DNA of 64,000 bases, from assembly GCA_013388635.1 (NCBI GenBank), contig JACAEX010000080.1, positions 5,803 through 69,802 of the forward strand. Reading direction: 5' to 3'. Both the position numbers and the translations under genes were made by a program. Source of the DNA: Syntrophaceae bacterium. GTDB lineage: Bacteria; Desulfobacterota; BSN033; UBA1163. The notes below the pieces were generated by a model. It made no database searches, was not told the DNA's origin, and was given only the letters and a program-made list of their open reading frames with translations. Of this stretch, positions 12,362-54,032 are shown piece by piece (position 1 is the stretch's first letter; each line of letters begins with the position of its first letter).

Positions 12362-13186
12362 CTACGGAATTACCCGGAACTCGACCCTTCTGTTCTTGGC
12401 CCTGCCTTCTTTGGTTGTATTATCTGCAATGGGCTTTATGCTTCCGTACCCTTTTACGATCAACCGATCCTCTGGGATGTTAAACTTATCTTGCAGATAC
12501 TTCTTCGCGCTAAGGGCCCTCTTTTCTGATATCTTCTGGTTCGCGGTTGCCGAGCCGGCTCCATCGGTATGCCCTCCGATTTCCACCTTGAGCTGGGGGT
12601 TTCCTTTAAGGATCATCCCGTTTCGATCCAGCGCCTTGGCTGCCAGAGGGCTGATATTTGTCTTGTTGGGTTCGAAATAGATCGTGTCAAACACCGGAGG
12701 CGCAACCGGTTTTGGTGGAGGAGCTGGTTTGGGTGGGGGAGGCGGTGGCGGCGGAGGAGGCGCTGCTGGTGTAGGCGGTGGCGGCGCAGGAGGCGCCGGA
12801 GGCGGAGGTGCTGCTGGTGTAGGCTCTGGCGGCGTAGGAGGCGCCGGAGGCGGTGGAGGTGGCGCTGGCGGTGCTGGTGGTGCCGGCGGTTTTTCGCAGA
12901 TCCTAATCGCTTCTAAGGACCTCTCTTTCGATATCGCAATGGCTTGGTCTATCTTATCAGTGGGCTTCAACCAAAATTTACGGATCCCATAGTCAGCCAG
13001 AGCCAGGTTCGCCTCCGCGGCAGCGTATTCACAAGGTGCGCACTTTTTTGCTCCGATCAATGTGGCCTTTTGAAATAGATCTTTAGCTTCATCATAGGCC
13101 ATCATGGTCTCTCGGCTAACGGCACATCCTGAAGCGATCATTGCTCCCAAGATAAGAACGATCAACATCATCCACTTCTTGCTCAT
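12362..13186 (-). CDS. OmpA-family lipoprotein with N-terminal DUF4398-like domain and long proline-rich (PAPP) linker
   Basis: Lipoprotein signal (LILGAMIASGC). The C-terminal OmpA peptidoglycan-binding motifs are NTDxxGxxxYNxxLSxxRA-like (HTDGAGSATANQKISEKRALSAKKYL). The linker of roughly 75 aa is almost pure P/A/T. Confidence 0.8.
   Translation of the reverse strand: MSKKWMMLIVLILGAMIASGCAVSRETMMAYDEAKDLFQKATLIGAKKCAPCEYAAAEANLALADYGIRKFWLKPTDKIDQAIAISKERSLEAIRICEKPPAPPAPPAPPPPPPAPPTPPEPTPAAPPPPAPPAPPPPTPAAPPPPPPPPPPKPAPPPKPVAPPVFDTIYFEPNKTNISPLAAKALDRNGMILKGNPQLKVEIGGHTDGAGSATANQKISEKRALSAKKYLQDKFNIPEDRLIVKGYGSIKPIADNTTKEGRAKNRRVEFRVIP
12700..12900 (-). repeat. low-complexity GC-rich (GGN/CCN) tract encoding the Pro/Ala-rich linker
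   Basis: Degenerate repeats of ggcgg/ggagg/gctgg units on the plus strand. They lie within the coding sequence of the OmpA-domain gene. Confidence 0.7.
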
Positions 13187-15234: not shown

Positions 15235-15282
15235 CGGTTTGATTTGTGCCAGCTGCTATTCTGAGGTCATTCCCTCGGGATA

Positions 15283-15350
15283 ATGGAATAGTGGAACAAT
15301 GGAATAATGAAGACAACCAATTTTCCATCATTCCATTATTTCGTTATTCC
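15283..15350 (-). repeat. array of TGGAAT/ATTCCA hexamer repeats forming an imperfect palindrome
   Basis: ATGGAATA-GTGGAACA-ATGGAATAATGAAG-acaaccaatt-TTCCATCATTCCATT-atttcg-TTATTCC gives three direct and three inverted copies. The coordinates are approximate. The array lies in the pgeF/DUF167 intergenic region and overlaps the pgeF stop. Confidence 0.4.
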
Positions 15351-23872: not shown

Positions 23873-26800
23873 TCAGCCCTTTTTCGCGGCCGGTTTTTGC
23901 GTGATCTTGCGAACGTTGGCCATAAAGGCCTTGGATTCCGGAATCATGGTATTGGGATCACCGATCGTAGGAGTGAGGAGATTCGCACTCTCTCCTCCGT
24001 CCTTTGGGTGGAGCCAGCCAAAATGCCACGGAATTCCTATCTGGTGAACGGTCTGCCCGGCGACGTTGAACGGCTTCAGCCGAGAGGTCACAATAGCCAC
24101 GGCCACGAGCCTTCCCCTTGGAGTTTCCACAGACACCCGGTCACCGTTTTTGATCCCTCGCAGCTTGGCCAGTTCGATGCTCATCTCACAAAAGACCTGA
24201 GGTTCAGCCTCAATCAGCCAGGGCAGCCATCGGGTCAATACGCCGGTCTGCCAGTGTTCGGTAACCCGGTAGGTGCTGCAAACAAAGGGGTATCTCGGAT
24301 CGCAGGTCGCAAATGTGTCCGGACCTCCCTCGAAGATCTTGACCACAGGGTTGATCCTCTGGCTGGACATCAGATTCTTCTCGATCGGACATTCGAGAGG
24401 CTCGTAGTGTTCAGGGAAAGGACCGTCCTTCAAGCCAGGTCCGAAGATGGATGATACTCCATCGGGTTTCATAATGAACGGATAGGCTCCGGTGGTCCCC
24501 ATGGGAGGCACGGCATTGTCAGGGACGTCGCCTATCCATTTCTTTTCCGTCGGGTCCCATCTGAGGAGGGGCCGTTTTGGGTCTCGAGGATTTCCGTCAA
24601 GATCCACTGAGGCTCTGTTGTAGATGATTCTGCGATTCAGTGGCCAGCACCATGACCACTCGGGATAGAGGCCCAATCCGGTCGGGTCGGTCTTCTTTCT
24701 ACGGGCAGCCATATTCCCGGCCTCGGTATAGCTGGCAGAATAGAGCCAGTTCCCGCAAGAGGTCGTCCCATCATCTTTTAAAGCGACAAAATTGGGAACT
24801 AATTTGCCGGTCGTGAGATCGTAGCCGTTGATCTCTTTTGCAACCTTATGGATATCAAAATGGCCACCGGATTCGTAGTCCCACTTCAGGTTTAAAATCG
24901 GCTCCGGGAAGGCCCCCTTTTCCTTTTCATAGAGGGCCCGAACCTTCTTAAAGAGTTCATATATGATATCGCCATCGGGCTTCGCCTCTCCAGGAGGATT
25001 GGCACATTTATAGCGCCATTGCATCCAGCGACCGCTGTTCGAGATGCTTCCTTCTTTTTCGAGGAAGGCGGCACAGGGGAGCTGGAAGACCTCGGTCTTG
25101 ATCTTCTTCGGATCCATTCCCGGGCCCTTCCAGAACGATCCTGTCTCGCTGTCGAAGACGTTGACATTGACCATCCAGTCAAGCTTTGCCAAGGCCTGGC
25201 GGACCTTTCCCGCATGGGCGCTTGAACAAGCAGGATTCATTCCCCAGGCAAAGAAACCGGTGAAGGTCCCTTTATACATCTCATCGAAGAGATTTAACCA
25301 TGAGGCATCCTGAGTCGGATCGAGTTTGGGCATCCACGAGTATCCAAAATCGTTCTCTTTCGTCGCTTTCTCTCCAAACATCGATTTTAAGAAGCTCACT
25401 AGGTATTTGGGCCGGTGTCTCCACCAGTTCACACTTCTTGGGTCCTTCGTCGTCGGAGTCGTCTTATTGTAGTCGGCAATGGTTGGCCACTGGGCCCTTG
25501 GAGTGGGTAAATACCCGGGGAGGATATGGAAAAGCAATCCCTGATCGGTTGACCCCTGGACATTGGATTCACCCCGGAGGGCGTTGACACCTCCTCCTGC
25601 AATCCCCATATTTCCGAGGAGATCCTGGATGATCGCCATGGCTCGAATGTTCTGGACGCCGACCGTATGCTGAGTCCATCCCATCGCGTAGAGGACGGTC
25701 CCTGCTTTATCAGGGGCACCTGTTGAGCCATATGCCTTGTAGACGTTTTCCAGGTCGGCCATCGGGGTTCCAGTAATTTCAGAGACCTTTTGGAGGGTAT
25801 AGCGGGAATAATGTTTCTTCAGGATCTGGAAGACGCATCGTGGGTCTTGAAGGGTCATATCCCTCTTCGGAATCCCATTTTCGTCCTTCTCCAAAGCCCA
25901 GGTCGATTGATCATAAGCCCTCTTGACCGGATCATAGCCTGAAAAGAGGCCGTCATCAAAACTATACTTGGGGTTGACGATGAATGAGGCATTGGTATAG
26001 TTCTTGACATAAAATTCATCGTAGAGGTTGTGGTCGAGAATATACTTGATCATGCCTCCGAGAAAGGCGATATCGGTTCCCGAACGAAGCCGCACAAAGA
26101 GATCGGCCTTTGTCGAGGTCCGGGTGAATCTGGGATCCACATGGATAAAGATCGCCCCTCTATCCTTCGCGGCCTGAATCCATTTAAAAGAGACCGGGTG
26201 ATTCTCGGCCACGTTTCCACCCATGTTTAGGATCACATCCGCGTTTCTGAAGTCGATATAATGATTGGTCATTGCACCGCGTCCGTACGACTCTGCCAGA
26301 GCCGCTACCGTGGCGCTGTGTCAGATACGGGCCTGATGTTCGATATAGACGATCCCCAATGCCCTGAGGAACTTCTGATAGAGCCAGCATTCCTCATTGT
26401 CCAGGGCCGCGCTTCCAACGGATGCGATTCCATTGGTTCGATTGACCACCTGGCCCTGTGAATTTTTCTCCATAAAGCTTGCGTCACGGCTCTTCTTGAT
26501 GTTGGCCGCGATCTTATTCAGGGCCCATTCCCAGCTCACCTCTTTCCAGGTGGTGCTGTATGGGGCACGATAACGGACCTTCTGAAGCCGATGTGGATTG
26601 ACAGCGATTTGATAACTCGAGGCCCCTTTGGCGCAGAGAGCTCCTTCGTTGATGGGATGGTCAGGATCTCCCTCGGCGTTAATCACCTTTCCTTTGGCAT
26701 CGGTGTGAACGATGATTCCACAGCCGACCGAGCAGAAACAACAGATCGACGTCGTCTCCTTCGCACCCTTGATTCTAAGTTGTTGGGCATAGACATCCGC

Positions 26801-26890
26801 AGCGGACAGATCGAACCCCAGGCCGCCCATCACCGTCCCTGCAGCAGTGGCGCCCGAGATCTTTAAAAAGGTTCTTCGGGTAATCTTCAT
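23873..26890 (-). CDS. fdhA: formate dehydrogenase catalytic subunit, selenocysteine-containing, Tat-exported (FdnG/FdhA)
   Basis: Two tracked ORFs (26321..26890 and 23873..26272) are joined in frame through the TGA at 26321-26323. This gives ...GIVYIEHQARI-U-HSATVAALAESYGRGAMTNHYIDFRNADVIL..., the conserved Sec active-site context of FdnG/FdhF. The N-terminus has a twin-arginine signal (TRRTFLKISGATAAG) and a CxxCxxxC 4Fe-4S motif. Confidence 0.9.
26284..26309 (-). promoter_or_regulatory. putative SECIS hairpin downstream of fdhA UGA
   Basis: On the minus strand, after an 11-nt spacer from the UGA, GCGGCUC-UGGCA-GAGUCGU can form a roughly 7-bp GC-rich stem-loop. The spacing fits bacterial SECIS elements. 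It was folded by eye only. Confidence 0.3.
26321..26323 (-). other. UGA selenocysteine codon of fdhA
   Basis: It is the stop codon of tracked ORF 26321..26890. The frame continues into ORF 23873..26272 with the consensus Sec-FDH sequence. Confidence 0.85.
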
Positions 26891-26913: not shown

Positions 26914-26929
26914 TTGAAATTTTGAAATC
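26914..26929 (-). repeat. TTGAAAT tandem motif in fdhA upstream region
   Basis: The plus strand reads ttgaaattttgaaatc, about 25-40 nt upstream of the fdhA start. The same ATTTCAA/TTGAAAT unit recurs in the lysA-upstream palindrome. Confidence 0.4.
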
Positions 26930-27059
26930 CGGAGTCAAATTCACCTCCTTTCCACACGTATAAAAATTCAGGGGAATCGACTGAGGATGATGATTTTCTT
27001 ACGAGATTCCCCTTCTTTGATCGTCATCTTTTTTAGGATTGGGCTAAGAATGTGGGAAG

Positions 27060-33624: not shown

Positions 33625-34632
33625 TCACTTGAAGTGTTCAAAACCCAGGCGATCAGGTGAATATTCTCTTCCATCTCTTTGGACGATGCGGAGTCCTTTT
33701 TTTCGATGGACAATTTCTCCGATACGGGTGATCGGTATCCTTAAGGAGTGGGATAGGGTTAAGATCTCCTTCCTCTTTTCTGGAGGTGCAGTGAAAAGGA
33801 GTTCGTAATCCTCACCTCCGGCAAGGGCGATCTCATAAAGATCTTTCGAATAGGAGCGGATCCACTTCCGGTAAGGCCTCGAGAGGGGAAGCTGTTCCTC
33901 CCGGATCCGAGCCCCTACCTTGCTCTCTTTCAGGAGATGGGTTGTATCGATCAGGAGGCCATCACTGACATCGATCATCGCCGTTGCCAGACGATGGCCT
34001 GCAATCGCCTGGCCCAATTCGATTCTCGGTCGGGGAGAGAGGTGCTTCTCAATCAATCGGCTGGCGTCTCCCTTCGCTCCTCCTTTCTCAAGCATCCTTA
34101 GCCCCAGAGCAGCGTCGCCCAGTGTTCCAGAGACAAAGAGATCATCGCCGACTCTTGCCCCTTTTCTGAAGAGAAGGCCTCCTTTCGTTCCTTCTCCGAG
34201 GAGGCAGATGTTGATGATGATCCTCGGAGAGAGCGAGGTATCCCCTCCCACAAGATCGACTCCGAAGCGCCTCGAGCCGTCTTTTAACCCGCGGTAGAAT
34301 GAGGTGACAAAGGAAAGGCTGAGGTTCTTTGGAAGACCAAGGGAGATCAGAAAGTATTTCGGCACGCCGCCCATCGCGGCAATGTCGCTGAGATTGACGG
34401 CTATGGCCTTCCTTCCCAATCGGTAAGGATCGCTCCAGGAGCGCTTGAAGTGGATGTCTTCGATGAGGATGTCAGTGGTGGCGAGCAGGACTTTGCGACG
34501 CATCTCGATCACAGCCACGTCATCTCCGATACCTTGGAGCAGGGCCGGATCAGATGAGCCCGTCCACCTTCTGATTCGATCGATGATGCCGAATTCACCT
34601 ATTTCCCGTAGGATTTTGTCAGTCACTCTCAA
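33625..34632 (-). CDS. thiL: thiamine-monophosphate kinase
   Basis: The AIR-synthase-related fold has the ThiL signature (EFGIIDRI...GDDVAVI...LLATTDILIEDIHF...GGDTS). The start is TTG. Confidence 0.8.
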   Translation of the reverse strand: MRVTDKILREIGEFGIIDRIRRWTGSSDPALLQGIGDDVAVIEMRRKVLLATTDILIEDIHFKRSWSDPYRLGRKAIAVNLSDIAAMGGVPKYFLISLGLPKNLSLSFVTSFYRGLKDGSRRFGVDLVGGDTSLSPRIIINICLLGEGTKGGLLFRKGARVGDDLFVSGTLGDAALGLRMLEKGGAKGDASRLIEKHLSPRPRIELGQAIAGHRLATAMIDVSDGLLIDTTHLLKESKVGARIREEQLPLSRPYRKWIRSYSKDLYEIALAGGEDYELLFTAPPEKRKEILTLSHSLRIPITRIGEIVHRKKGLRIVQRDGREYSPDRLGFEHFK

Positions 34633-34649
34633 CTCCGAACTCTGAACTC

Positions 34650-37001
34650 CTAACTCCTATTCTTGGCGAGAGCGATCCGTAGGACTTCGTCCATATGTTT
34701 GACGGGCAGAAAGTCGATCTTCTTCCGGACGTAGGATGGAAGATCGGTAAGGTCCTTCTTGTTCAGATATGGGATGACAACCTTCTTGATATTGTTTCGC
34801 AAGGCGGCCAGGGCCTTCTCCTTCAGCCCCCCTACCGGCAGGACCCTTCCCCTCAGGGTGATCTCACCCGTCATGGCTACGTCTTTTCGGATGGGAGTAC
34901 CGGTGAGGACGGAGATCAGGGCGACAGCCATGGTAATCCCTGCGGAGGGCCCATCCTTCGGAATAGCCCCGGCAGGGACATGGATATGGATCTCCTTGTT
35001 ATTGAAGGCCTCGGGCTTAATCCGATACGCCTTGCTTTTCGAGCGGGCGTAAGTCAGGGCGGCCTGGGCCGACTCCTTCATCACCTCTCCCAGGTGACCC
35101 GTGAGGATGAGATTGCCCTTGCCCGGAGTGGTGGAGGCCTCCACATGAAGGATTTCACCACCGGTCTCTGTCCAGGCCAGACCCGTGGCCACGCCGATTT
35201 CATTCCGCTTCTGTTCTTCATCGGGTAAGAAGGGGGGAGGGCCCAAAAATCGATGAATATTTCTGGTATGGATGACGGTCTTTTCTTTCTTTCCCTCTGC
35301 CACTTTCCTTGCTACCTTCCGACAGATGGAGGCCAGTTGCCTCTCAAGGTTCCGAAGGCCTGCCTCCTGAGTATATTGAGAGATGATCTGGAGGATCGCC
35401 TTATCGGAGATCTGGAGTTCCTTCGGGCTGATCCCATTCTCCTCCATCTGCCGTGGCAGGAGGAAGGTTCGGGCGATCTTAACTTTTTCGATATCGGTGT
35501 ATCCGGGAAGGTGGATGATCTCCATCCGGTCTCTGAGAGCGCTCGGGATGGGATCGGTCAGGTTCCCTGTCGTGATAAACATGACCTTGGAGAGATCGAA
35601 GGGAACGTTGAGGTAATGGTCGCTGAACGCATAGTTCTGCTCCGGGTCGAGGACCTCCAGAAGGGCAGACGCGGGGTCTCCACGGAAGTCATTCCCGATC
35701 TTGTCCACCTCGTCCATCATAAAGACTGGGTTATTGGTACCGGCCTGTTTGATCGATTGGATGATCCTTCCTGGCATGGCACCGATATAGGTCCGGCGAT
35801 GTCCGCGTATCTCAGCCTCGTCCCGAATTCCGCCGAGGGAGATCCTGACAAATTTCCTGCCCAGCGCTCTGGCGATCGATCTTCCCAGAGAGGTTTTTCC
35901 CACTCCTGGGGGGCCGATGAAGCAGAGGATGGGCCCCTTCATCTTTCTCTTCAATTTGCGAACGCTCAGGAATTCTAAAATGCGTTCTTTCACCTTTTCC
36001 AGGTTGTAATGATCCTCATCCAGGACCTTCTTGGCCTTTCGAATATCGAGGCTGTCGACGGTCGATCTGGACCAGGGCATCTCCACCAGCCAGTCGAGGT
36101 AGGTGCGGACCATGGAGGCCTCTGCCGCATCGGGATGCATCTGCTCCAACCGACTCAGTTCGCGTCGGGCCTCCTTCTCCACCTCTTTTGGCATATTTGC
36201 CTTTTTGATCTTCTGACGAAGTTCTCTCAATTCCTTGGTCCGTTCATCCACCTCTCCGAGTTCACTTCGGATGGCCCTCATCTGCTCTCGGAGAAAGTAT
36301 TCCCTCTGACTTTTTGTGATCTCCTCCTTTGCCTGGGACTGGATCTTCGCCTGCATGGTGAGGACCTGGACCTCTTTTCCGAGAACCTCGTTGAGTGCCC
36401 GAAGTCTCTGGACAGGGTCGAAGATCTCCAGAATCTCTTGGGCCTTCTCCACGGTCAAATCCAAATTGGAGGCAACCAGATCAGCCAATCTTCCGGGATC
36501 GTCGACGCTTTCGAGGACGAACATCAGATCGGGCGAAAGGAGCTTTCCGTAAGAGACGATCCTCTCCAGCTGTTCTTTGACATTCCTCATCAGGGCTTCG
36601 GTCTCAAGGGTGATCTCCGTAATGAAGGGGTCTTTTATATTTTCTAACCTCACAAGAAAGAAAGGGGTGGTCCGGAGGACTTCTTTGATCGAGGCCTTGG
36701 AGAGACCCTGGATGAGGATCTTGACCTTTCCGTCAGGAAGCTTAAGCATCTTCATCACGATGGCCACTGTGCCCACTTGATAGAGGTCTTTCAGGGAGGG
36801 TTCCTCTTCGTTAAGATTTTGTTGGGCCACCAGGAAGATCAGTCGGTCCTTGGAGAGGGCCTCTTCCAGCGCCTTGATCGATTTTTCCCGGCTTATAAAG
36901 AGGGGGAGGACCATATAAGGAAAGACGACGATATCCCTGACGGGAAGGAGAGGAAGTGTTTCAGGAAGGGAGAGCAGGTCTTGTTCAGATCTTTTTTCCA
37001 T
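34650..37001 (-). CDS. lon: ATP-dependent Lon protease
   Basis: 783 aa. LON N-domain, AAA+ motifs ([11 protein letters not shown]) and the proteolytic Ser-Lys dyad region (PKDGPSAGI). Confidence 0.95.
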
Positions 37002-47133: not shown

Positions 47134-48413
47134 ATCTCCTGATCGCGATCAGCTTTTTCGTGTCTTTGGCGTTGGGGATTCCCATTGCCTTTGTGATGGG
47201 AATCAGCGCTTTGGCAGCCCTCTTTGCGCTGCCCAATGTGCCACTCCACCTGATCCCTCAGCGGCTCTTCACAGGCATGGACTCTTTTCCCATCATGGCC
47301 GTCCCCTTCTTTATCCTCGGTGGTGATCTGATGAACGCTGCAAAGATTACGGACCGGATTCTTGATTTTTCCAAGCTGCTGGTGGGGAGGATCCGGGGCG
47401 GGCTGGGCCATGTCAATATTGTGGGCAGCATGTTTTTTGCTGGGATCAGCGGTTCCGCAGTGGCGGATGCCTCATGTCTTGGGTCCATACTGATTCCGGC
47501 CATGCAAAAGGATGGTTATGAGGTTCATTACGCCTCTGCGATCACCGCGTCAGCAGCCATCATCGGTCCGATTATCCCTCCGAGCATTCCCATGGTGGTG
47601 CTTGCCCTGGTGGCGAACCTCTCCGTAGGGGCGCTCTTTTTAGGCGGGGTGCTGCCAGGGGTTTTTATCGGGCTGGGATTGATGGCGGTGAACTATGTGA
47701 TCTCAAGAAGAAGAGATTATGCGAGGGTTAACCAACCCCTGACGTTCAGGATATTTTTCAGTACCCTTATCGGCGCCATCATTCCTCTTCTGATGCCGCT
47801 GATCATCATGGGAGGAATTCTGAGCGGGGTTTTCACCCCTACGGAAGCGGCTTCCATTGCTGTGGCCTATGCCCTTTTTGTGGGGTTCTTCGTTCTTCGG
47901 ACCCTCACGCTGAAAGACCTTCCGAGGATCTTTTTCAGGAGCGCGGTCGCTACCAGCACGATCCTGATTGTGATGGCAATGGCCAATGCCTTCAGCTGGA
48001 TTCTGGCGACCCAGCAGATCCCTCAACAGGTTAGCCAGTTCATCTTTTCCATCTCCAGGGATCCTTATGTCATCCTTTTTCTGATCAATATCTTTCTCCT
48101 GATCGTGGGTTGTTTCCTGGAGGGGCTGGCCGCCATCATTCTGATCGTCCCGATCCTCATGCCTGTGGTGACACAGCTTGGAATCCACCCCATCCATTTT
48201 GCCCTGATCGTGGTGGTCAACCTGATGATCGGTCTCCTGACACCGCCCCTGGGGCTCTGCCTCTTTGTGGTCTGCGGTATTTCCAAGATAAAGCTCGGGC
48301 CCCTTTTTAAAGAGGTCGTCCCATTCCTGATCGTGGAGATCGTCATTCTATTCGTGATCACCTATATGCCCTGGTTTACGCTGACCCTTCCTCGCCTGTT
48401 TAAGCTTTTGTGA
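47130..48413 (+). CDS. dctM: TRAP transporter large permease DctM family (second system)
   Basis: Start at ATG 47130 (MNLLIAISFFVSLALGIPIAFVMG...). Paralogous to dctM at 3141. Confidence 0.85.
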   Translation: MNLLIAISFFVSLALGIPIAFVMGISALAALFALPNVPLHLIPQRLFTGMDSFPIMAVPFFILGGDLMNAAKITDRILDFSKLLVGRIRGGLGHVNIVGSMFFAGISGSAVADASCLGSILIPAMQKDGYEVHYASAITASAAIIGPIIPPSIPMVVLALVANLSVGALFLGGVLPGVFIGLGLMAVNYVISRRRDYARVNQPLTFRIFFSTLIGAIIPLLMPLIIMGGILSGVFTPTEAASIAVAYALFVGFFVLRTLTLKDLPRIFFRSAVATSTILIVMAMANAFSWILATQQIPQQVSQFIFSISRDPYVILFLINIFLLIVGCFLEGLAAIILIVPILMPVVTQLGIHPIHFALIVVVNLMIGLLTPPLGLCLFVVCGISKIKLGPLFKEVVPFLIVEIVILFVITYMPWFTLTLPRLFKLL

Positions 48414-48472
48414 CCCCTGTTTTACCGATTTCAGACTTGACAATCCTCCGGGATTCCTTTAGTTTTTAAAAA

Positions 48473-49078
48473 ATGAAAAACCGTCTCATCCTGGCCTCAA
48501 GGTCTCCCCGTCGATATGAGTTGCTCAAACAAATCGGTCTTGATTTCGATGTGATCCCGAGCGGGATCGAAGAGGACTTCGTTCCTGACGAGTCTCCCAG
48601 GGAACATGTGATTCGATTGGCAGAGGCAAAGGCCTTCGATGTAGGGAACCGATACCCTGACCGTTGGGTGATTGCCGCGGATACCATGGTCTATGTGGAT
48701 GGTGATGTCTTAGGAAAGCCGAAGACCATGGAAGAGGCCATGGAGATGTTGAAACGCCTCAGCGGAAGGGAACACCGGGTGTTGACCGGATTTTCTGTCC
48801 GGCACTTTGGGAAAGGGATCCGAGATCAGGAGGCGGTCGAGACGGCGGTGAGGGTGAAGGGCCTGACACCTGCTGAGATGGACTGGTATGTCCGGACAGG
48901 AGAGCCTTTTGATAAGGCAGGAGGTTATGCGATTCAAGGGATCGGATCCTTCATGATCGAGTCGATCCGGGGATCATACACCAATGTGGTGGGCCTTCCG
49001 GTCTGCGAGGTGATTCAGATGCTCAATCGCCTGGGGGCCCTGACCATTGCAGATTTCAGATTGCAGATTTCAGATTGA
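48473..49078 (+). CDS. maf: Maf-family nucleoside triphosphate pyrophosphatase
   Basis: LILASRSPRR...GKP...ADTVV-type Maf motifs (ILASRSPRRYELLKQIG; IAADTMVYVDGDVLGKP). Confidence 0.85.
   Translation: MKNRLILASRSPRRYELLKQIGLDFDVIPSGIEEDFVPDESPREHVIRLAEAKAFDVGNRYPDRWVIAADTMVYVDGDVLGKPKTMEEAMEMLKRLSGREHRVLTGFSVRHFGKGIRDQEAVETAVRVKGLTPAEMDWYVRTGEPFDKAGGYAIQGIGSFMIESIRGSYTNVVGLPVCEVIQMLNRLGALTIADFRLQISD
49049..49076 (+). repeat. 2 x 14-bp tandem repeat (GCAGATTTCAGATT; heptad AGATTNC x4) inside the maf 3' end
   Basis: The plus strand reads gcagatttcagatt gcagatttcagatt and encodes the Maf C-terminal IADFRLQISD. It ends at the yggS TTG start. Confidence 0.7.
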
Positions 49079-49761
49079 ATATGTCATCCATCAAAGAAAA
49101 TTATGTAAAAGTGATAGAGCGAGTGGAGAAGGCAGCGAAGAGATCGGGAAGAGATCCAAAGGAGATCAAGCTGGTTGCTGTCTCCAAGACGGTGGAGCCT
49201 GCTCGCATCAAAGAGGCCATCGAGGCCGGAGTCTCCATTCTTGGTGAGAACTACGTTCAGGAGGCGCAGAGGAAGATCGAGGAGATCGGTCGATCAGTCT
49301 CCTGGCATTTCATCGGACACCTTCAATCGAACAAGGCAAAGTATGCGGTCCGACTTTTTGATATGATACACTCTTTGGACAGTATCGCCCTGGCCGAGGA
49401 GTTGAACCGGAGAGCTGAAAGAGAAGGCAAGGTGATGGAAGTGATGATCGAGGTCAATCTCTCCGGAGAGGCCAGCAAATTTGGTGCGGAAGGTGAGAAG
49501 GCCTTGGACATCGCAAGAAGGGTTCTGGATCTTAAGAATCTTTCATTAGTGGGATTGATGACCATGCCACCCTACTTCGATTCGCCTGAGATGAGCAGGC
49601 CATACTTCATTCAACTTCGAGAGTTAAAGGAGAGGATGGCAGCGCAAGGCATCTCTCTAAGGGAGCTTTCCATGGGCATGTCGAATGACTTTGAAATCGC
49701 CATCGAAGAAGGGGCCACCTATGTGAGGGTGGGAACAGCGATCTTTGGACCACGAAGATGA
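49075..49761 (+). CDS. yggS: YggS-family pyridoxal-phosphate homeostasis protein
   Basis: PLP-binding lysine context (KLVAVSKT) and the alanine-racemase N-domain-like barrel. TTG start overlapping the maf stop. Confidence 0.85.
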   Translation: MNMSSIKENYVKVIERVEKAAKRSGRDPKEIKLVAVSKTVEPARIKEAIEAGVSILGENYVQEAQRKIEEIGRSVSWHFIGHLQSNKAKYAVRLFDMIHSLDSIALAEELNRRAEREGKVMEVMIEVNLSGEASKFGAEGEKALDIARRVLDLKNLSLVGLMTMPPYFDSPEMSRPYFIQLRELKERMAAQGISLRELSMGMSNDFEIAIEEGATYVRVGTAIFGPRR

Positions 49762-50837
49762 ACAAAAGAGTTCAAAGTTCAAAGTTCAAAGTTCGAAGTT
49801 TTAAGTCCCAATTGGGAAGTATCACCCTTCTTGGAATAGTATTGATGATATTAGGTGGTTGTGGTGTGAAGGGGCGGCCTGTTCCCTGGGAGACAGTTGT
49901 TCCCAAGAGGATCGTCGACCTTGAGGCCATTCCGCGGGATGGCCATCTTCTCTTGGAATGGACCTCTCCAAAGGAGAATACCGACAAATCACCTCTCGTT
50001 GATCTGGTCAAGTTTCAAATCTTCAGGTCAGAAGGGATTCTCGTCGAGGACGGATGCAAGGGATGTGGGGAGAGAAGGAGAGTGGTCTATGAGATGAAGT
50101 TGGAGGGGAAGGAGGAGATGAAGAGCAGAAGGATGTCCGTCCTGCTTGAGGATCATGAGGCGAGAAGGGTCTATGTCTACGAGGTGGTTTCCATCAACCG
50201 GCGAGGGCACCCCAGTTCTCCCTCCAATCCGGTTTGGGTCTATTGGGATCATCCACCCGAACCACCGAAGATGTTGAAAGGAGAAGGAGGAGATAAGAGG
50301 GTGGACCTCTCATGGGAAGCCGTGGAGGAGGCAACAGGGTATAACGTTTACAGAAGGTTGGCGGACGAGGCCTTTCCGACCAGGCCTCTCAACAGAGAGC
50401 CTCTGACTGTGACCGGGTATACAGATCTCAATGTGGAGAATGAAAAGCAGTATATCTATTCCGTCAGGGCATTGAGACGGGTGGTCAAGACCGATGTTGA
50501 AGGAAAGGGGTCTCCTGACCTTCCGGTCACCCCTGTGGATCTCGTTCCACCCAGCGCTCCTCTGGGCCTTACGGCCATCCCTGTCAAAAATGGGATAGAG
50601 CTGAGCTGGAACAGGAATCGAGAGCCGGACCTGTTGGGTTATTACGTTTACCGGAGAAAGTCAGGGGAGAGGGACTTCAAGAGATTGCATGAGACTCCTC
50701 TGGAGAAGGAGGCCTACTTTGACACTCAGGTTGAGTTGGAGCAGAATTATGACTATGCGGTGACGGCAGTGGATAACTCGGCCCGAAGAAACGAAAGCCC
50801 ATTGTCTGAGGAAGTGAGAGTGAAATATATCTATTGA
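49758..50837 (+). CDS. lipoprotein with three fibronectin-type-III-like repeats
   Basis: Lipobox LGGCG. There are three repeats of about 100 aa, each with LxW...GYxVYR...PL...Y.D........Y.Y.V.A.D..G..S. Confidence 0.6.
   Translation: MNKRVQSSKFKVRSFKSQLGSITLLGIVLMILGGCGVKGRPVPWETVVPKRIVDLEAIPRDGHLLLEWTSPKENTDKSPLVDLVKFQIFRSEGILVEDGCKGCGERRRVVYEMKLEGKEEMKSRRMSVLLEDHEARRVYVYEVVSINRRGHPSSPSNPVWVYWDHPPEPPKMLKGEGGDKRVDLSWEAVEEATGYNVYRRLADEAFPTRPLNREPLTVTGYTDLNVENEKQYIYSVRALRRVVKTDVEGKGSPDLPVTPVDLVPPSAPLGLTAIPVKNGIELSWNRNREPDLLGYYVYRRKSGERDFKRLHETPLEKEAYFDTQVELEQNYDYAVTAVDNSARRNESPLSEEVRVKYIY
49769..49800 (+). repeat. heptad tandem repeat (AGTTCAA)x4.5 at the 5' end of the lipoprotein gene
   Basis: The plus strand reads agttcaa agttcaa agttcaa agttcga agtt and encodes KFKVRSFKS near the N-terminus. 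Confidence 0.7.
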
Positions 50838-50840
50838 TCG

Positions 50841-50917
50841 CAGATTTCAGATTTAAGATTTCAAATTGAGGTTTCTATCTTTTCAATCTGAAATTTGAAA
50901 TTTGAAATCTGAAATTT
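50841..50917 (+). repeat. large imperfect palindrome built from ATTTCAA/AGATTTC heptads between the lipoprotein gene and lysA
   Basis: The left arm cagatttcagatttaagatttcaaatt and the right arm aatctgaaatttgaaatttgaaatctgaaattt are near reverse complements, separated by about 17 nt. The structure ends 16 nt before the lysA ATG. Confidence 0.6.
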
Positions 50918-50932
50918 CATGCGGAGGGAAGG

Positions 50933-52189
50933 ATGCATTTTTTTGAATATCAGGACCATCAGCTTCATTGTGAGGGGGTTCCGGTTGAAGCGATCGCTGA
51001 GAAGGTGGGGACCCCTTTCTATCTTTACAGTTACCATACTCTGGTGAGGCATTTTACCGTCTTTGATAAGGCCTTCGATGGAATTCCTCATTTAGTCTGC
51101 TATTCTGCCAAGGCCAATTCCAATCTGGCACTTCTCCGTCTCTTCGTCAACCTCGGAGGGGGTGTCGATATCGTCTCCGGAGGGGAGCTCTACCGGGCCC
51201 TTCAAGCCGGGGCCGATCCGCAAAAGATCGTCTTTTCGGGAGTGGGGAAGAGGCCCGACGAGATCGAGTACGGCCTGAGGGCAGGGATCCTCATGTTCAA
51301 TGTAGAATCTTCCCAGGAGCTCCAGGCGCTCGACGAGGTGGCCGGTCGCATCGGAAAAAAGGCGAGCATTTCGATCCGGGTCAACCCTGACATCGATCCT
51401 AAAACCCATCCCTATATCTCCACTGGACTGAAGCAGAATAAATTTGGGATCGATATCCTCCGGGCGCCGATGGCTTATCGCATGGCCACGCAGTTGCCGA
51501 ACCTGAAGATCGTAGGGATCGACTGCCATATCGGTTCGCAGCTGATCGAAGTGGAGCCGGTGATCGAGGCCCTGCGAAAGCTGAAACGGCTGGTCGAGGA
51601 TCTGAGAAAAGAGGGGATAGAAATCCGATACCTGGATTTAGGAGGGGGTCTCGGCATCACCTATGAGGATGAAGAGCCTCCCCATCCCACGGATTATGCG
51701 GCCAGTATCCTGGAAGAGATCAAAGGATTCGGTTGCACCCTGATCCTGGAACCGGGCCGGGTGATTGTGGGCAATGCGGGGATTCTGGTTTCAAAGGTCC
51801 TCTATATGAAAGAGAACGAGGAGAAGCAATTTGTCATTGTCGATGCGGGCATGAACGATCTGGTCCGGCCGAGCTACTATGGCTCCTATCATCAGATCCT
51901 TCCGGTGAAGGAGGAGGCACGGGAGGAGATCGTGGCAGACGTGGTCGGTCCGATCTGCGAGTCGAGCGACTTTTTGGCCAAGGGACGGAGGATGCCGAAG
52001 GTCAAACCCGGTGAGTTGATCGCTGTGATGAGCGCGGGCGCGTACGGGTTTTCCATGTCGACCAACTATAACTCGAGGCCGAGGGTGGCTGAGGTGATGG
52101 TTCGGGACGATCAGATGTATGTCATCCGGCGGAGAGAGGGTTATGAGGATCTGATTCGAGGAGAAGAGATACCGGAGTTCTTGCTCTGA
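50933..52189 (+). CDS. lysA: diaminopimelate decarboxylase
   Basis: 418 aa. Fold-III PLP decarboxylase motifs (YSAKANSN with the lysine; GGG; EPGR; SDF). Confidence 0.9.
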   Translation: MHFFEYQDHQLHCEGVPVEAIAEKVGTPFYLYSYHTLVRHFTVFDKAFDGIPHLVCYSAKANSNLALLRLFVNLGGGVDIVSGGELYRALQAGADPQKIVFSGVGKRPDEIEYGLRAGILMFNVESSQELQALDEVAGRIGKKASISIRVNPDIDPKTHPYISTGLKQNKFGIDILRAPMAYRMATQLPNLKIVGIDCHIGSQLIEVEPVIEALRKLKRLVEDLRKEGIEIRYLDLGGGLGITYEDEEPPHPTDYAASILEEIKGFGCTLILEPGRVIVGNAGILVSKVLYMKENEEKQFVIVDAGMNDLVRPSYYGSYHQILPVKEEAREEIVADVVGPICESSDFLAKGRRMPKVKPGELIAVMSAGAYGFSMSTNYNSRPRVAEVMVRDDQMYVIRRREGYEDLIRGEEIPEFLL

Positions 52190-52354
52190 AAATTCGAGGC
52201 ATCCCAAAGGGATCAATCCGAAACAAATCCAAATGACCCAAGCACTCAATTCGAAACGAAAAGCAGCAATGTTCAGGACATTTGGCCATTCGAATTTTAA
52301 ATTTGTTTCGAGTTTCGATATTCGAATTTCGGATTTTCAAAACCGGAGGTTTTG

Positions 52355-53176
52355 GTGAAGATTCCTTTCATGAAGATGAGCGGGAGCGGCAATGACTTCA
52401 TCCTGATCGATCATCGTATTCCGTTTCTCGGTCAGGACGAGATGAAAGGTTTTGCCTGCAAGGTCTGCCAGAGAAGAGTCTCTGTCGGTGCGGATGGCCT
52501 GATCCTGATCGAGAAATCGGAAAGGGCAGATTTCAGATGGCGGTTCTTCAATGCCGACGGAAGCGAGGCAGAGATGTGCGGCAACGGCGGCCGTTGCGCG
52601 GCCCGCTTTGCCAATTTGAAAGGGATCGCCGGGCCTTCGCTGACCTTTGAGACCCTGGCCGGGATCGTGTCTGCAGAAGTCAATGGAAAACGGGTAAAGC
52701 TGGAAATGACCAAACCCCACGGCCTGAAGCTGGACGAAAAGATTTCAATCGAAGGGAAGGATGTGATGCTCTCAAGCATCAACACCGGAGTCCCTCATGC
52801 TATCTTGTTCTTGAAAGATCTTGAACAGGTCGATGTGGTTCAAACGGGAAAGGCGATCCGATTCCATCCCCATTTCAAACCAGCTGGGACGAATGTGAAT
52901 TTTGTTCAGGTGGAGAATCCTTCCCGGCTTTCCATCCGGACTTATGAACGGGGAGTGGAGGATGAGACCCTGGCCTGTGGCACCGGTGCAGTGGCCTCGG
53001 CCCTGGTCTCTGCTTTTAAGGGATTGGTGAGCTCGCCGGTTTCGATCAGGACCCGGGGGGGCGAGATCCTCACGGTCTATTTTGAGATGGAAGACCGGGA
53101 CGTAAAGAGGGTCTTCTTTGAAGGAGATGTCCGTATCATTTATGAAGGTGAGATATGGGAGGAGGGGTACCGATGA
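52355..53176 (+). CDS. dapF: diaminopimelate epimerase
   Basis: N-terminal KMSGSGNDF, two catalytic Cys regions (GNGGRC; ACGTGAVA). The GTG at 52355 is 6 nt after GGAGG. The tracked TTG is at 52352, and an ATG at 52370 is also possible. Confidence 0.85.
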   Translation: MKIPFMKMSGSGNDFILIDHRIPFLGQDEMKGFACKVCQRRVSVGADGLILIEKSERADFRWRFFNADGSEAEMCGNGGRCAARFANLKGIAGPSLTFETLAGIVSAEVNGKRVKLEMTKPHGLKLDEKISIEGKDVMLSSINTGVPHAILFLKDLEQVDVVQTGKAIRFHPHFKPAGTNVNFVQVENPSRLSIRTYERGVEDETLACGTGAVASALVSAFKGLVSSPVSIRTRGGEILTVYFEMEDRDVKRVFFEGDVRIIYEGEIWEEGYR

Positions 53177-53973
53177 AAGAGATCAGGGCGATCCTCGTGG
53201 GAGCAGCGGGGAGGATGGGGGCAAGGCTTGTTCATATCATCCAGGAGACAGCCGGGATAAAACTCTTTCGAGCGATTGAGCGGCCGGACCATCCCTCGAT
53301 CGGAAAGGATATCGGAGAGATCGTTGGCCTTGGAAATTTAGGGATTCCACTGGAGGGGAGGTTGAGAGAAGGAGGCGATGTGATCATCAATTTCAGCAGT
53401 CCTCAGGCCTCCTTAGAAAGTCTGGAGTTTGCCAACCAGGCAGGTCTGGCCATTGTGATCGGTACCACAGGCTTAAGTCCGGAGCAGATGGAGAGGGTGA
53501 GGGAGCTTTCGAAAGGCACACGCTGCGTCATGGCGCCCAATATGAGCGTCGGGATGAATGTGATGTTTCGCATCGTTCAGGAGATCGCCCGAGTGTTGGG
53601 CCCGGATTATGATATTGAAATCCTGGAGGCCCATCATCGTTTGAAGAAGGATTCTCCGAGCGGGACAGCCGTAAGGCTGGGAGAATTGATTGCCAGCGCC
53701 CTCGACAGAGACTTTGGAAAGGTGGGTGTTTATGGAAGAAAGGGCATGGTTGGTGAACGAAAAAGGGAGGAGATCGGGATGCAGGTGATCCGGGCAGGCG
53801 ATATCGTCGGAGAACACACGGTCCTCTTCGGAGGGATCGGAGAGCGTCTGGAGATCACCCACCGTGCTCACAGCCGGGACAACTTTGCTCGCGGGGCAGT
53901 GAGGGCTGCCCTCTGGGTGGTCGGCCAGCCCAACGGCCTTTATGACATGCAGGATGTGTTGGGATTGAGATAG
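53173..53973 (+). CDS. dapB: 4-hydroxy-tetrahydrodipicolinate reductase
   Basis: Start at ATG 53173 (MKEIRAILVGAAGRMG), with an ATGA overlap with dapF. E(L/A)HH motif (LEAHHRLKKDSPSGTA). Confidence 0.9.
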   Translation: MKEIRAILVGAAGRMGARLVHIIQETAGIKLFRAIERPDHPSIGKDIGEIVGLGNLGIPLEGRLREGGDVIINFSSPQASLESLEFANQAGLAIVIGTTGLSPEQMERVRELSKGTRCVMAPNMSVGMNVMFRIVQEIARVLGPDYDIEILEAHHRLKKDSPSGTAVRLGELIASALDRDFGKVGVYGRKGMVGERKREEIGMQVIRAGDIVGEHTVLFGGIGERLEITHRAHSRDNFARGAVRAALWVVGQPNGLYDMQDVLGLR

Positions 53974-54032
53974 ATGAGACGATGTCAAATCTCAAATTTT
54001 TTGCCTCGCCTTTGGCGGGATAGGCGGGAGTT

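Follow-up and report, generated by a model that had tools for sequence, protein, structure and literature searches.

Degenerate heptanucleotide arrays and intercistronic hairpins at the gene junctions of a maf-lysA-dapF operon in uncultured Syntrophales

The DNA considered here, which we call the window, is a 64 kb stretch of the genome of an uncultured member of the Syntrophaceae/Syntrophales (Thermodesulfobacteriota), and our subject is the set of seven-nucleotide tandem repeats at the gene junctions of one of its operons. The genes concerned form a co-directional row on the plus strand: the tripartite ATP-independent periplasmic (TRAP) transporter genes dctPQM, followed by maf, yggS, lip (encoding an fn3 lipoprotein), lysA, dapF and dapB. 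The maf open reading frame (ORF; 48473-49078) has 201 residues and ends in LTIADFRLQISD directly before its stop codon; yggS (49081-49761) begins with the ATG at 49081; lip starts at either 49758 or 49845 and ends at 50837 (stop codon 50835-50837); lysA (50933-52189) begins with the ATG at 50933; and dapF (52352-53176) and dapB (53155-53973) complete the row. The junctions are designated J1 (maf to yggS), J2 (yggS to lip), J3 (lip to lysA) and J4 (lysA to dapF), and the related loci compared with the window carry L-numbers (L001 etc.). The repeat at the end of maf and the palindrome in the lysA leader are very probably two local instances of a class of degenerate heptanucleotide arrays found throughout the clade, of the type known as short tandemly repeated repetitive sequences (STRRs) or long simple sequence repeats (LSSRs). 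The arrays of the lysA leader are not specific to lysA, as the same class is present at all of the operon junctions and also at 34625-34661.

Tandem repeats were called with Tandem Repeats Finder (TRF), and the arms, RNA folds and shuffle controls were computed on the window sequence. The J1 array (49046-49077, plus strand) is made up of 4.6 units of ATTGCAG/ATTTCAG, or of a 14-nt unit present twice, and TRF accordingly reports it both with period 14 (2.3 copies, 100% matches) and with period 7 (4.6 copies, 84%). It contains GCAGATTTCAGATT at 49049-49062 and again at 49063-49076, and it encodes Maf residues 192-201 (IADFRLQISD) together with the TGA stop. The original prediction, that a sequence occurring twice at 49049-49076 encodes the Maf C-terminus, is correct to the coordinate, the part concerned being the last 10 residues. 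At J3, also on the plus strand, the left arm (CAGATTT CAGATTT AAGATTT CAAATTG A; 50841-50869, TRF 50841-50867) starts 3 nt past the lip stop, the loop GGTTTCTATCTTT occupies 50870-50882, and the right arm (TCAATCTG AAATTTG AAATTTG AAATCTG AAATTT; 50883-50917, TRF 50885-50917) is the reverse complement of the left. The lysA Shine-Dalgarno (SD) region GGAGGGAAGG with its ATG (50922-50935) lies immediately 3' of this stem. The large palindrome that had been proposed for the lysA leader is therefore real, with 29-nt arms (50841-50869 and 50883-50911) that are 86% complementary and have 13 nt between them, and its expected end 16 nt before lysA agrees with a period-7 signal reaching 50917 and an ATG at 50933. 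Folding of this leader, the check suggested at the time, gives -31.2 kcal/mol for 50830-50940 (z = -2.9 against dinucleotide shuffles); the J3 spacer alone reaches z = -6 against mononucleotide shuffles.

The two other junctions of the window carry arrays of different units. The J2 array (AGTTCAA, 4.6 copies; 49764-49807, plus strand, TRF 49769-49800) lies directly 3' of the yggS stop and is found also in L021, other relatives having long non-coding heptad hairpins at J2. If lip were translated from the ATG at 49758, this array would encode the n-region of the lipoprotein signal peptide (RVQSSKFKVRSFKS). That ATG overlaps the yggS stop as ATGA and gives a full signal peptide with n-region, h-region and LGGC lipobox; the public gene call places the start at 49845 (MILGGCG...). 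J4 is a long imperfect hairpin (52187-52351, plus strand; -41.1 kcal/mol, z = -2.2) with a partly decayed left arm (AATCCGAAACAAATCCAAATGACC) and a right-arm array of GTTTCGA/ATTTCGG, or TTTCGAR, at 52304-52336 (TRF 52306-52336); a near-identical intact version is present in L016, L025 and L006. The ATTTCAA unit had originally been noted in the dapF leader as well, where the array inside this hairpin is TTTCGAR. Just past the dapB stop there is a two-unit remnant, GATGTCAAATCTCAAATTT (53978-54000, plus strand), at a position where relatives have an AATGTCA array. Outside the operon, a CGGAGTT-type array (AGGAGTT AGGAGTT CAGAGTT CGGAGTT GAGAGT; 34625-34661, minus strand) sits between unrelated genes and bridges two codons, the one that stops ORF 34650-37001 and the one that opens ORF 33625-34632.

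The window has six arrays with period 7, of which five fall within 49041-52336. Matches to CAGATTTCAGATTT with at most 3 mismatches number 22, against 10 +/- 3.4 expected (none of 100 shuffles reach 22), and the close ones are concentrated at 49050-49077 and 50841-50918. The idea of ATTTCAA as a dispersed upstream motif fared less well, this single heptamer being barely enriched (21 occurrences against 13.2 +/- 3.6 expected; 3 of 100 shuffles reach 21). The motif reported upstream of fdhA is present as written at 26914-26929, but its membership of the family is doubtful: CGGATTTCAAAATTTCAAG (26914-26931, minus strand), directly 5' of the fdhA SD sequence, has two copies only, with period 8, lies within what chance alone would give and is at best a decayed relative.

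The array census covered 116 clade loci (1.08 Mb) and, for comparison, 0.41 Mb of distant loci (LysA identity below 60%, mostly Gammaproteobacteria). Sequence from relatives came as windows of at most 21 kb, with about 0.55 Mb of non-operon sequence among the 116 loci, and the coding share of the clade DNA was put at 80% by a crude ORF model. About 33 species representatives and the majority of 80 metagenome contigs have the gene order maf-yggS-lip-lysA-dapF-dapB, and degenerate 7-nt arrays occupy J1, J2, J3 and J4 in most genomes (about 115 related Syntrophales loci). The clade loci contain 238 period-7 arrays (22 per 100 kb) against 23, 39 and 11 arrays of periods 6, 8 and 9 (1-4 per 100 kb); the distant loci contain 5 of period 7. 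Although 80% of the DNA is coding, only 17 of the 238 (7%) lie deep in coding sequence, and there are 38 arrays per 100 kb within the operon compared with 6 beyond it. A strict detector finds an array in 46% (J1), 29% (J2), 65% (J3) and 38% (J4) of distinct spacers, as opposed to 16/480 (3.3%) of other co-directional spacers, 6/86 (7%) of convergent and 1/86 (1.2%) of divergent ones. Taken together, 7-nt tandems, an excess of period 7, a non-coding bias and, as described below, copy-number polymorphism are what characterises heptanucleotide LSSR/STRR sequences. Four more distant loci (L043, L044, L054 and L055; LysA 60-63%; MAGs, that is, metagenome-assembled genomes, of Syntrophobacterales, Desulfohalobiaceae and other Thermodesulfobacteriota) also have many period-7 arrays, often as inverted pairs, with quite different units (TAACTAA, CAGGTTT, ACCTCTG, GGCAGCA, ATCCGAA and others), and such arrays thus seem to reach far outside the Syntrophales clade.

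The lip-lysA spacer lends itself best to comparison between species. Minimum-free-energy folds of 79 distinct J3 spacers (60-200 nt) contain a domain of at least 15 pairs in 70 cases; the median distance from the lip stop to its start is 0 nt (at most 3 nt in 56/70), and that from its end to the lysA ATG is 14 nt, which places the end directly 5' of the SD sequence (n=70). The two arrays of a spacer are almost always reverse complements of each other, and the units fall into several types: CAGATTT (T3) in the window, L018, L153, L161, L162, L095 and L156, and elsewhere CGGAWTK (T1), CGGAGTT (T2), CAATTGA/CAATGAT (T4), GCTMAWA with CAATGAC (T5) and CAGTAAG. Left arms folded with their own right arms give a mean of -30.9 kcal/mol, compared with -19.1 kcal/mol for cross-species pairings (none of 10,000 permutations was as low, p < 1e-4, with at least 5 unit types represented), and the folding z falls below -3 in 16 of 31 species. 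Identity within a cassette type is 80-89% for the arms, 35-70% for the loops and 38-61% for the SD regions. In T3, to which the window belongs, the loop is unconserved (35% identity, against 80-84% in the arms); in T1 and T2 the right arm, on the lysA side, is slightly better conserved than the left.

Several observations bear on whether such an element would act in RNA or in DNA. A consensus scan for intrinsic terminators and sigma-70 promoters had no match at any array. The J3 stem is A/U-rich and followed by CATGCGGAGG, in place of the G+C-rich stem and U-tract of an intrinsic terminator, and an Rfam scan of 48000-53500 detected no family and no lysine riboswitch, its hits being no more than miRNA-hairpin noise below threshold (29.6 bits, where the gathering score is 83). 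The sense strand is the more stable one in 34 of 52 hairpin spacers (p = 0.003). Among 1x1 mismatches, scored with G.U pairing disallowed, G.U exceeds A.C (67 vs 46; p = 0.06), and G.G exceeds C.C by 77 to 4, which points to a sense-strand purine excess. The strand and G.U signals are weak overall, and the preference of arrays for transcribed over divergent spacers involves small numbers; the evidence leans towards a transcript-level element.

No conspecific variant of the window arrays was found: Logan yielded identical contigs only (L001, L002), and genome and metagenome scans gave LysA identities of 89% or less. A 22.9-kb contig identical to part of the window is present in Logan sample SRR10095340, and the closest genomes are MAGs labelled Syntrophaceae, Thermodesulfobacteriota or delta proteobacterium. 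Strain-level change was therefore read from other species pairs. The arrays grow and shrink in 7-nt steps and are kept by slippage and recombination. Thus L009 and L136, with flanks 98-99% identical, have 6 vs 3, 3 vs 4 and 5 vs 3 units in three adjacent arrays, and L123/L128 differ from L132, again with 98-99% identical flanks, by 2 vs 4 units. The suggestion of a repeat family propagated by slippage is supported by these strain differences of whole 7-nt units, as it is by the roughly 6- to 20-fold predominance of period 7. As a separate observation, the three J3 arrays that lie side by side in L009 and L136 (AGCTCAA/AGTTCAA, GGGAAAA and CAATGAC) include none complementary to another. In the lysA-dapF spacer, L128 and L132 (flanks 99.7% identical) have a 17-nt unit, gttgagttacaagaaca, three times and once, respectively, a tandem duplication whose period is not 7.

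Whole spacers, from the stop codon through the SD sequence, are discrete cassette types that are exchanged and recombined between near-identical strains. L124/L134 and L135 are 97-98% identical in their flanks (98% in yggS, lip and lysA) and have unrelated J3 cassettes; L014 and L016 (lip 97%, lysA 96%, dapF 96% identical) have different J3 cassette types; and L124 and L134 differ completely at J4. The swapped J3 block is bounded precisely by the lip stop and the lysA start, contains the SD sequence and shows no duplications, and every replacement cassette is again a heptad hairpin. Among 23 pairs in which both 300-nt flanks are at least 95% identical, J3 is identical in 13, similar in 6 and strongly different in 4. 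L146 is a recombinant with the T2 left arm and loop of L130 and the T1b right end of L148, joined in the shared TCCGAACTCCG. Conversely, the window, L018 and L156 share type T3 with flanking genes only 67-78% identical, and L012, which has another J3 type, is no more distant from the window in its flanks than L018 and L156 are.

Other small palindromes are found at the same junctions. A GC-rich palindrome of about 48 nt, cccctcacccctccctctcccctcgggggagagggaggggtgagggg, is nested with its variants in the middle of the heptad hairpin at J3 of L016, L021, L097, L108, L110 and L147, and palindromes of this type occur also at J1, J2 or J4 of L006, L009, L011, L012, L013, L019 and L021; it looks like a dispersed REP-like (repetitive extragenic palindromic) element that targets or replaces hairpin loops. 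A 20-nt palindrome, CCTGCCTGCCGGYAGGCAGG, lies at the equivalent left-arm position of J3 in L096 (a T1 array) and L156 (a T3 array), after GCG or GCA and before ATTGCRGA, and resembles the small dispersed repeats nested within cyanobacterial heptamer arrays. Finally, a double hairpin (gccctgaacc..ggttcagggc tgccctgcacc..ggtgcaggg) replaces the heptad hairpin at J3 of L003/L083/L107, and the same gccctgaacc-type double hairpin follows the Maf tail, downstream of maf, in L004, L013, L029, L032 and L034. The Maf tail ends in proline (...P and stop) in several genomes because the stop codon lies in the GCCCTGA of this element.

Residue 186 of 201 is the last one in the Pfam Maf domain, and the J1 array therefore encodes a C-terminal tail. 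This tail past the domain is 15 aa long in 52 of 69 loci, with the consensus LGAIT-I-S-E-x-G-[ILM]-R-I-x-[DE], and it is constrained as a peptide, because it is kept even where its codons are non-periodic (L023, L004, L026-L033). The DNA beneath it is, in most genomes, a heptad array whose units are translated in all three frames. The class to which the window belongs has CAG for CGG in all four J1 units, with five residues changed together; CpG methylation and deamination was considered as the source of this change and rejected, CpG observed/expected ratios being equal in T3 and T1 genomes (0.73-0.87). The Maf-tail array and the lysA-leader arms share their unit type within the window (49046-49079 and 50885-50917), within L018 and within L156. 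Sharing of 7-mers between J1 and J3 is greater within a genome than between the J1 of one genome and the J3 of others (0.144 vs 0.092; p = 0.0008). A CAGATTK tail occurs in 3 of the 4 T3-J3 loci that include maf, compared with 1 of 57 others (L020), an association with Fisher p ~4e-4, uncorrected for phylogeny. In the window, the J1 array and the J3 right arm, which lie 1.8 kb apart, show 88% complementarity over 34 nt. The simplest guess for this coupling would be gene conversion between the two junctions. The J1 array would differ from the others in being translated as a Maf tail of fixed length while its DNA is homogenised in step with J3.

How these arrays might be put to use can be approached by joining the two lines of evidence: STRR/LSSR-type arrays, kept by slippage and recombination, would form generic intercistronic hairpins that act on the mRNA. 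We regard this joint reading as evenly balanced, and a structure-dependent function of the hairpins, taken for itself, as a tentative proposal. On the polycistronic mRNA the J3 arms would fold into a long, imperfect A/U-rich stem-loop of about 30 bp, whose action would be generic and not lysine-responsive. As an intercistronic module it might be an exonuclease barrier or a substrate for a double-strand RNase, in the manner of REP-type hairpins, which in Escherichia coli can act as stabilisers of mRNA 3' ends. The stem could also insulate lysA translation, or couple it to the termination of lip. Coupling is possible because the lip stop and the lysA SD sequence sit at both ends of one stem, and a ribosome at the lip stop would have to melt the stem base beside the SD sequence. 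With a 7-nt architecture, either arm could slip in register and still pair, which would explain how pairing survives so rapid a turnover.

A strong rival, though in our view less likely than not, is that the arrays are a functionless by-product, renewed in a tolerant spacer by slippage, intra-array conversion and recombination, with the inverted pairs generated by template switching. The hypervariability and the unit indels agree with this, and a 7-nt slippage bias has already been proposed elsewhere (Mrazek 2007, as reported in PMC4679880 and PMC4692102). Moreover, a series of results weighs against a function of the hairpin and in part speaks directly for the by-product. Arms are frequently unequal (e.g. 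2 vs 4 units in L005, L123 and L154), and L009, L029 and L038 have two arrays that are not complementary. At J3 itself there is neither a strand preference (sense more stable in 10, antisense in 9) nor an excess of G.U over A.C mismatches (19 vs 21). Compensatory double changes are rare within types in RNAalifold comparisons (T3, 3/26 pairs; T2, 0/22; T1, 1/11), and because they are nearly absent, arm complementarity could stem from the origin of the cassettes, by inverted duplication or conversion, and not from selection. A sister group (L026-L028, L030, L031 and L033) keeps the operon with a J3 of 22-67 nt and no array; the J3 element is therefore dispensable. Finally, the comparative statistics are uncorrected for shared ancestry, and the cassette swaps are read from metagenome contigs, though with conspecific flanks on both sides. 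What the by-product explanation does not readily accommodate is the junction occupancy of 29-65% in the operon against 3.3% in other co-directional spacers, the contrast, within a type, between conserved arms (80-89%) and drifting loops and SD regions, with flanking genes at only 67-78%, the constancy of the stop-to-SD geometry over unrelated cassette types, and the fact that replacement cassettes are always heptad hairpins.

A more far-reaching idea, which we consider improbable, is that the spacers are discrete heptad-hairpin alleles of ancient maintenance. Such alleles could account for types that differ between 96-98% identical strains, for the same type persisting despite flanks of 67-78% identity, and for arrays 1.8 kb apart that change together. 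If true, it would imply either an active mechanism that homogenises or writes 7-nt units specifically, or else selection, balancing or diversifying, on a module that acts at the RNA level; in the latter case, the 3' end of maf might pair with the right arm of the lysA leader, or the cassettes might provide escape from an RNA-targeting antagonist.

The arrays might instead be a platform on which a loosely specific protein with an approximately 7-nt footprint binds single-stranded RNA (a cold-shock domain protein, S1, or CsrA on GGA units); its cooperative binding would tune translation of the downstream gene. The same proposal has been made for the TAACTGA repeats discussed below (PMC4679880). 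Arrays that end right at the SD sequence or start codon would suit such a role, as would the GGA or GGAG in many unit types and the slightly better conserved lysA-side arm of T1 and T2. However, the window units CAGATTT and AGTTCAA have no GGA, and for most arrays base pairing is predicted, not a single-stranded state; a sequence-specific binding factor is further disfavoured because at least 5 unrelated unit sequences coexist. On this evidence we give the platform little credence.

Insertion of a mobile palindromic element between the genes, whether like REP sequences and their hairpin-forming doublets (REPINs), like miniature inverted-repeat transposable elements (MITEs) or like integron attC sites, is very unlikely. 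To be sure, the elements are hairpins of about 100 nt in transcribed intergenic DNA, their presence and type are polymorphic between strains, and other small palindromes do insert into them. Yet the cassette loops never recur, and in the approximately 0.55 Mb outside the operon only array arms find matches, mostly the J1 Maf tail, those of T2 having 0 matches outside J3, which is not the behaviour of REPIN/REP sequences. A MITE is contradicted by the lack of target-site duplications, of terminal inverted repeats beyond the arrays and of copies at unrelated sites, and attC sites by the finding that, over about 33 species, the spacers vary but the gene content does not. No integrase or REP-associated tyrosine transposase (RAYT) was noticed in the ORF lists of the window or in the loci, where no systematic search was made.

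Contingency (phase-variation) repeats, which would shift the frame of the maf C-terminus or the lip N-terminus and so switch the lipoprotein on or off, are brought to mind by the position of the J1 and J2 arrays inside ORF ends and by a unit length that is not a multiple of 3. They are highly improbable here: the Maf tail has its fixed length of 15 aa in 52/69 loci, which eliminates a switch at J1, the units are imperfect and few (4-5), J2 is non-coding in most relatives, and the genes are housekeeping ones. As for a lysA-specific attenuator or terminator, an option raised originally and taken here as responding to lysine, the position in the lysA leader and the stable stem speak for it, but it is extremely unlikely, since there is no U-tract or terminator match, no L-box or other Rfam family and no leader peptide, the same element class occupies all operon junctions and 34625-34661, and its sequence is unconserved across species, swapped as cassettes within species and absent from the sister group.

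Comparable repeats are known from other bacteria. The STRRs of Calothrix and Nostoc are said to have been described by Mazel in 1990 (cited in PMC4692102). Heptanucleotide units are the commonest long simple sequence repeats (SSRs) in several phyla, and a polymerase slippage bias towards 7 nt has been proposed, according to the account in PMC4679880 (Mrazek 2007). Intergenic heptamer repeats, GGGAATC in Xanthomonas and GGGGAYT in Nostoc, lie between the same gene pairs in related species and are highly variable both in sequence and in length (Rehm et al. 2015, PMC4692102); they are found near ORF ends, sometimes inverted, are depleted between divergent genes and mostly transcribed, and no function was found for them (PMC4692102). 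TAACTGA direct repeats, with 2-6 copies that end a few nt before start codons, occur in Beggiatoaceae, cyanobacteria and Bacteroidetes (MacGregor 2015, PMC4679880); they show no link to gene function, and a post-transcriptional role was suggested (PMC4679880). REP sequences, the bacterial interspersed mosaic elements (BIMEs) that they form, and REPINs make up a further class (Bertels & Rainey 2011, PMC3116915).

The general features of these heptamer repeats all recur in the arrays described here. Our arrays are like the STRR/LSSR class in being degenerate 7-nt tandems with a strong intergenic bias, lineage-restricted abundance, unit families shared across genera, copy-number variation and a proposed origin by slippage. 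They differ in belonging to the Syntrophales lineage, in having 3-6 units, mostly as inverted pairs that close the whole spacer, in their concentration in one operon, in cassette alleles swapped between conspecifics, and in reaching into coding termini. The GGGAATC/GGGGAYT units have G-tracts and form G-quadruplexes, whereas hairpins are the rule here; G-quadruplex-forming heptamers were rejected as a candidate, the window units CAGATTT, AGTTCAA and TTTCGAA being without G3 tracts; TTTGGGA arrays are present at J2 of some relatives. Among the TAACTGA repeats a single heptamer dominates the whole genome and inverted copies are nearly absent, in contrast to the many unit families and typical inverted pairing of the present arrays. 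With REP/REPIN elements they share imperfect hairpins in transcribed intergenic operon DNA and a species-specific sequence, but no dispersed high-copy identical copies were found, and the arms are tandem heptads, not a unique 20-35-mer. Five points thus set these arrays apart: the lineage, A/T-rich units without G-tracts, a regular stop-to-SD inverted pairing, the concentration in one operon and discrete cassette alleles. No description of heptad arrays in Syntrophales was found in the open-access literature.

Some further features of the window lie away from the operon. A GGN-rich repeat with periods 9, 18 and 48 at 12738-12890 is probably a glycine-rich coding repeat, and at 15280-15309 there is a period-8 repeat, ATAATGGA, in 3.8 copies. 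On the minus strand an in-frame TGA at 26321-26323 (context IEHQARI*HSATVAAL) lies between ORFs 26321-26890 and 23873-26272, which are in the same frame and together look like one selenocysteine-containing FdhA-type formate dehydrogenase with an N-terminal twin-arginine signal.

For annotation, the finding means that such arrays create variable protein termini, as in the Maf tail and the lipoprotein n-region, and mislead start-codon calls, and that they are neither riboswitches nor terminators. More generally, several bacterial phyla have heptanucleotide arrays as their most abundant class of long SSRs, with no function shown (PMC4692102, PMC4679880), and the approximately 115 orthologous operons are a natural comparative series in which the coding frame is fixed, the array position and the stop-to-SD hairpin geometry are constant, and unit sequences, copy numbers and even entire cassettes turn over. 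Such a series makes structural selection, mutational self-renewal and recombination distinguishable. The reading of the spacers as maintained alleles, if true, would for the first time give a functional lead on the STRR puzzle, which is 35 years old.

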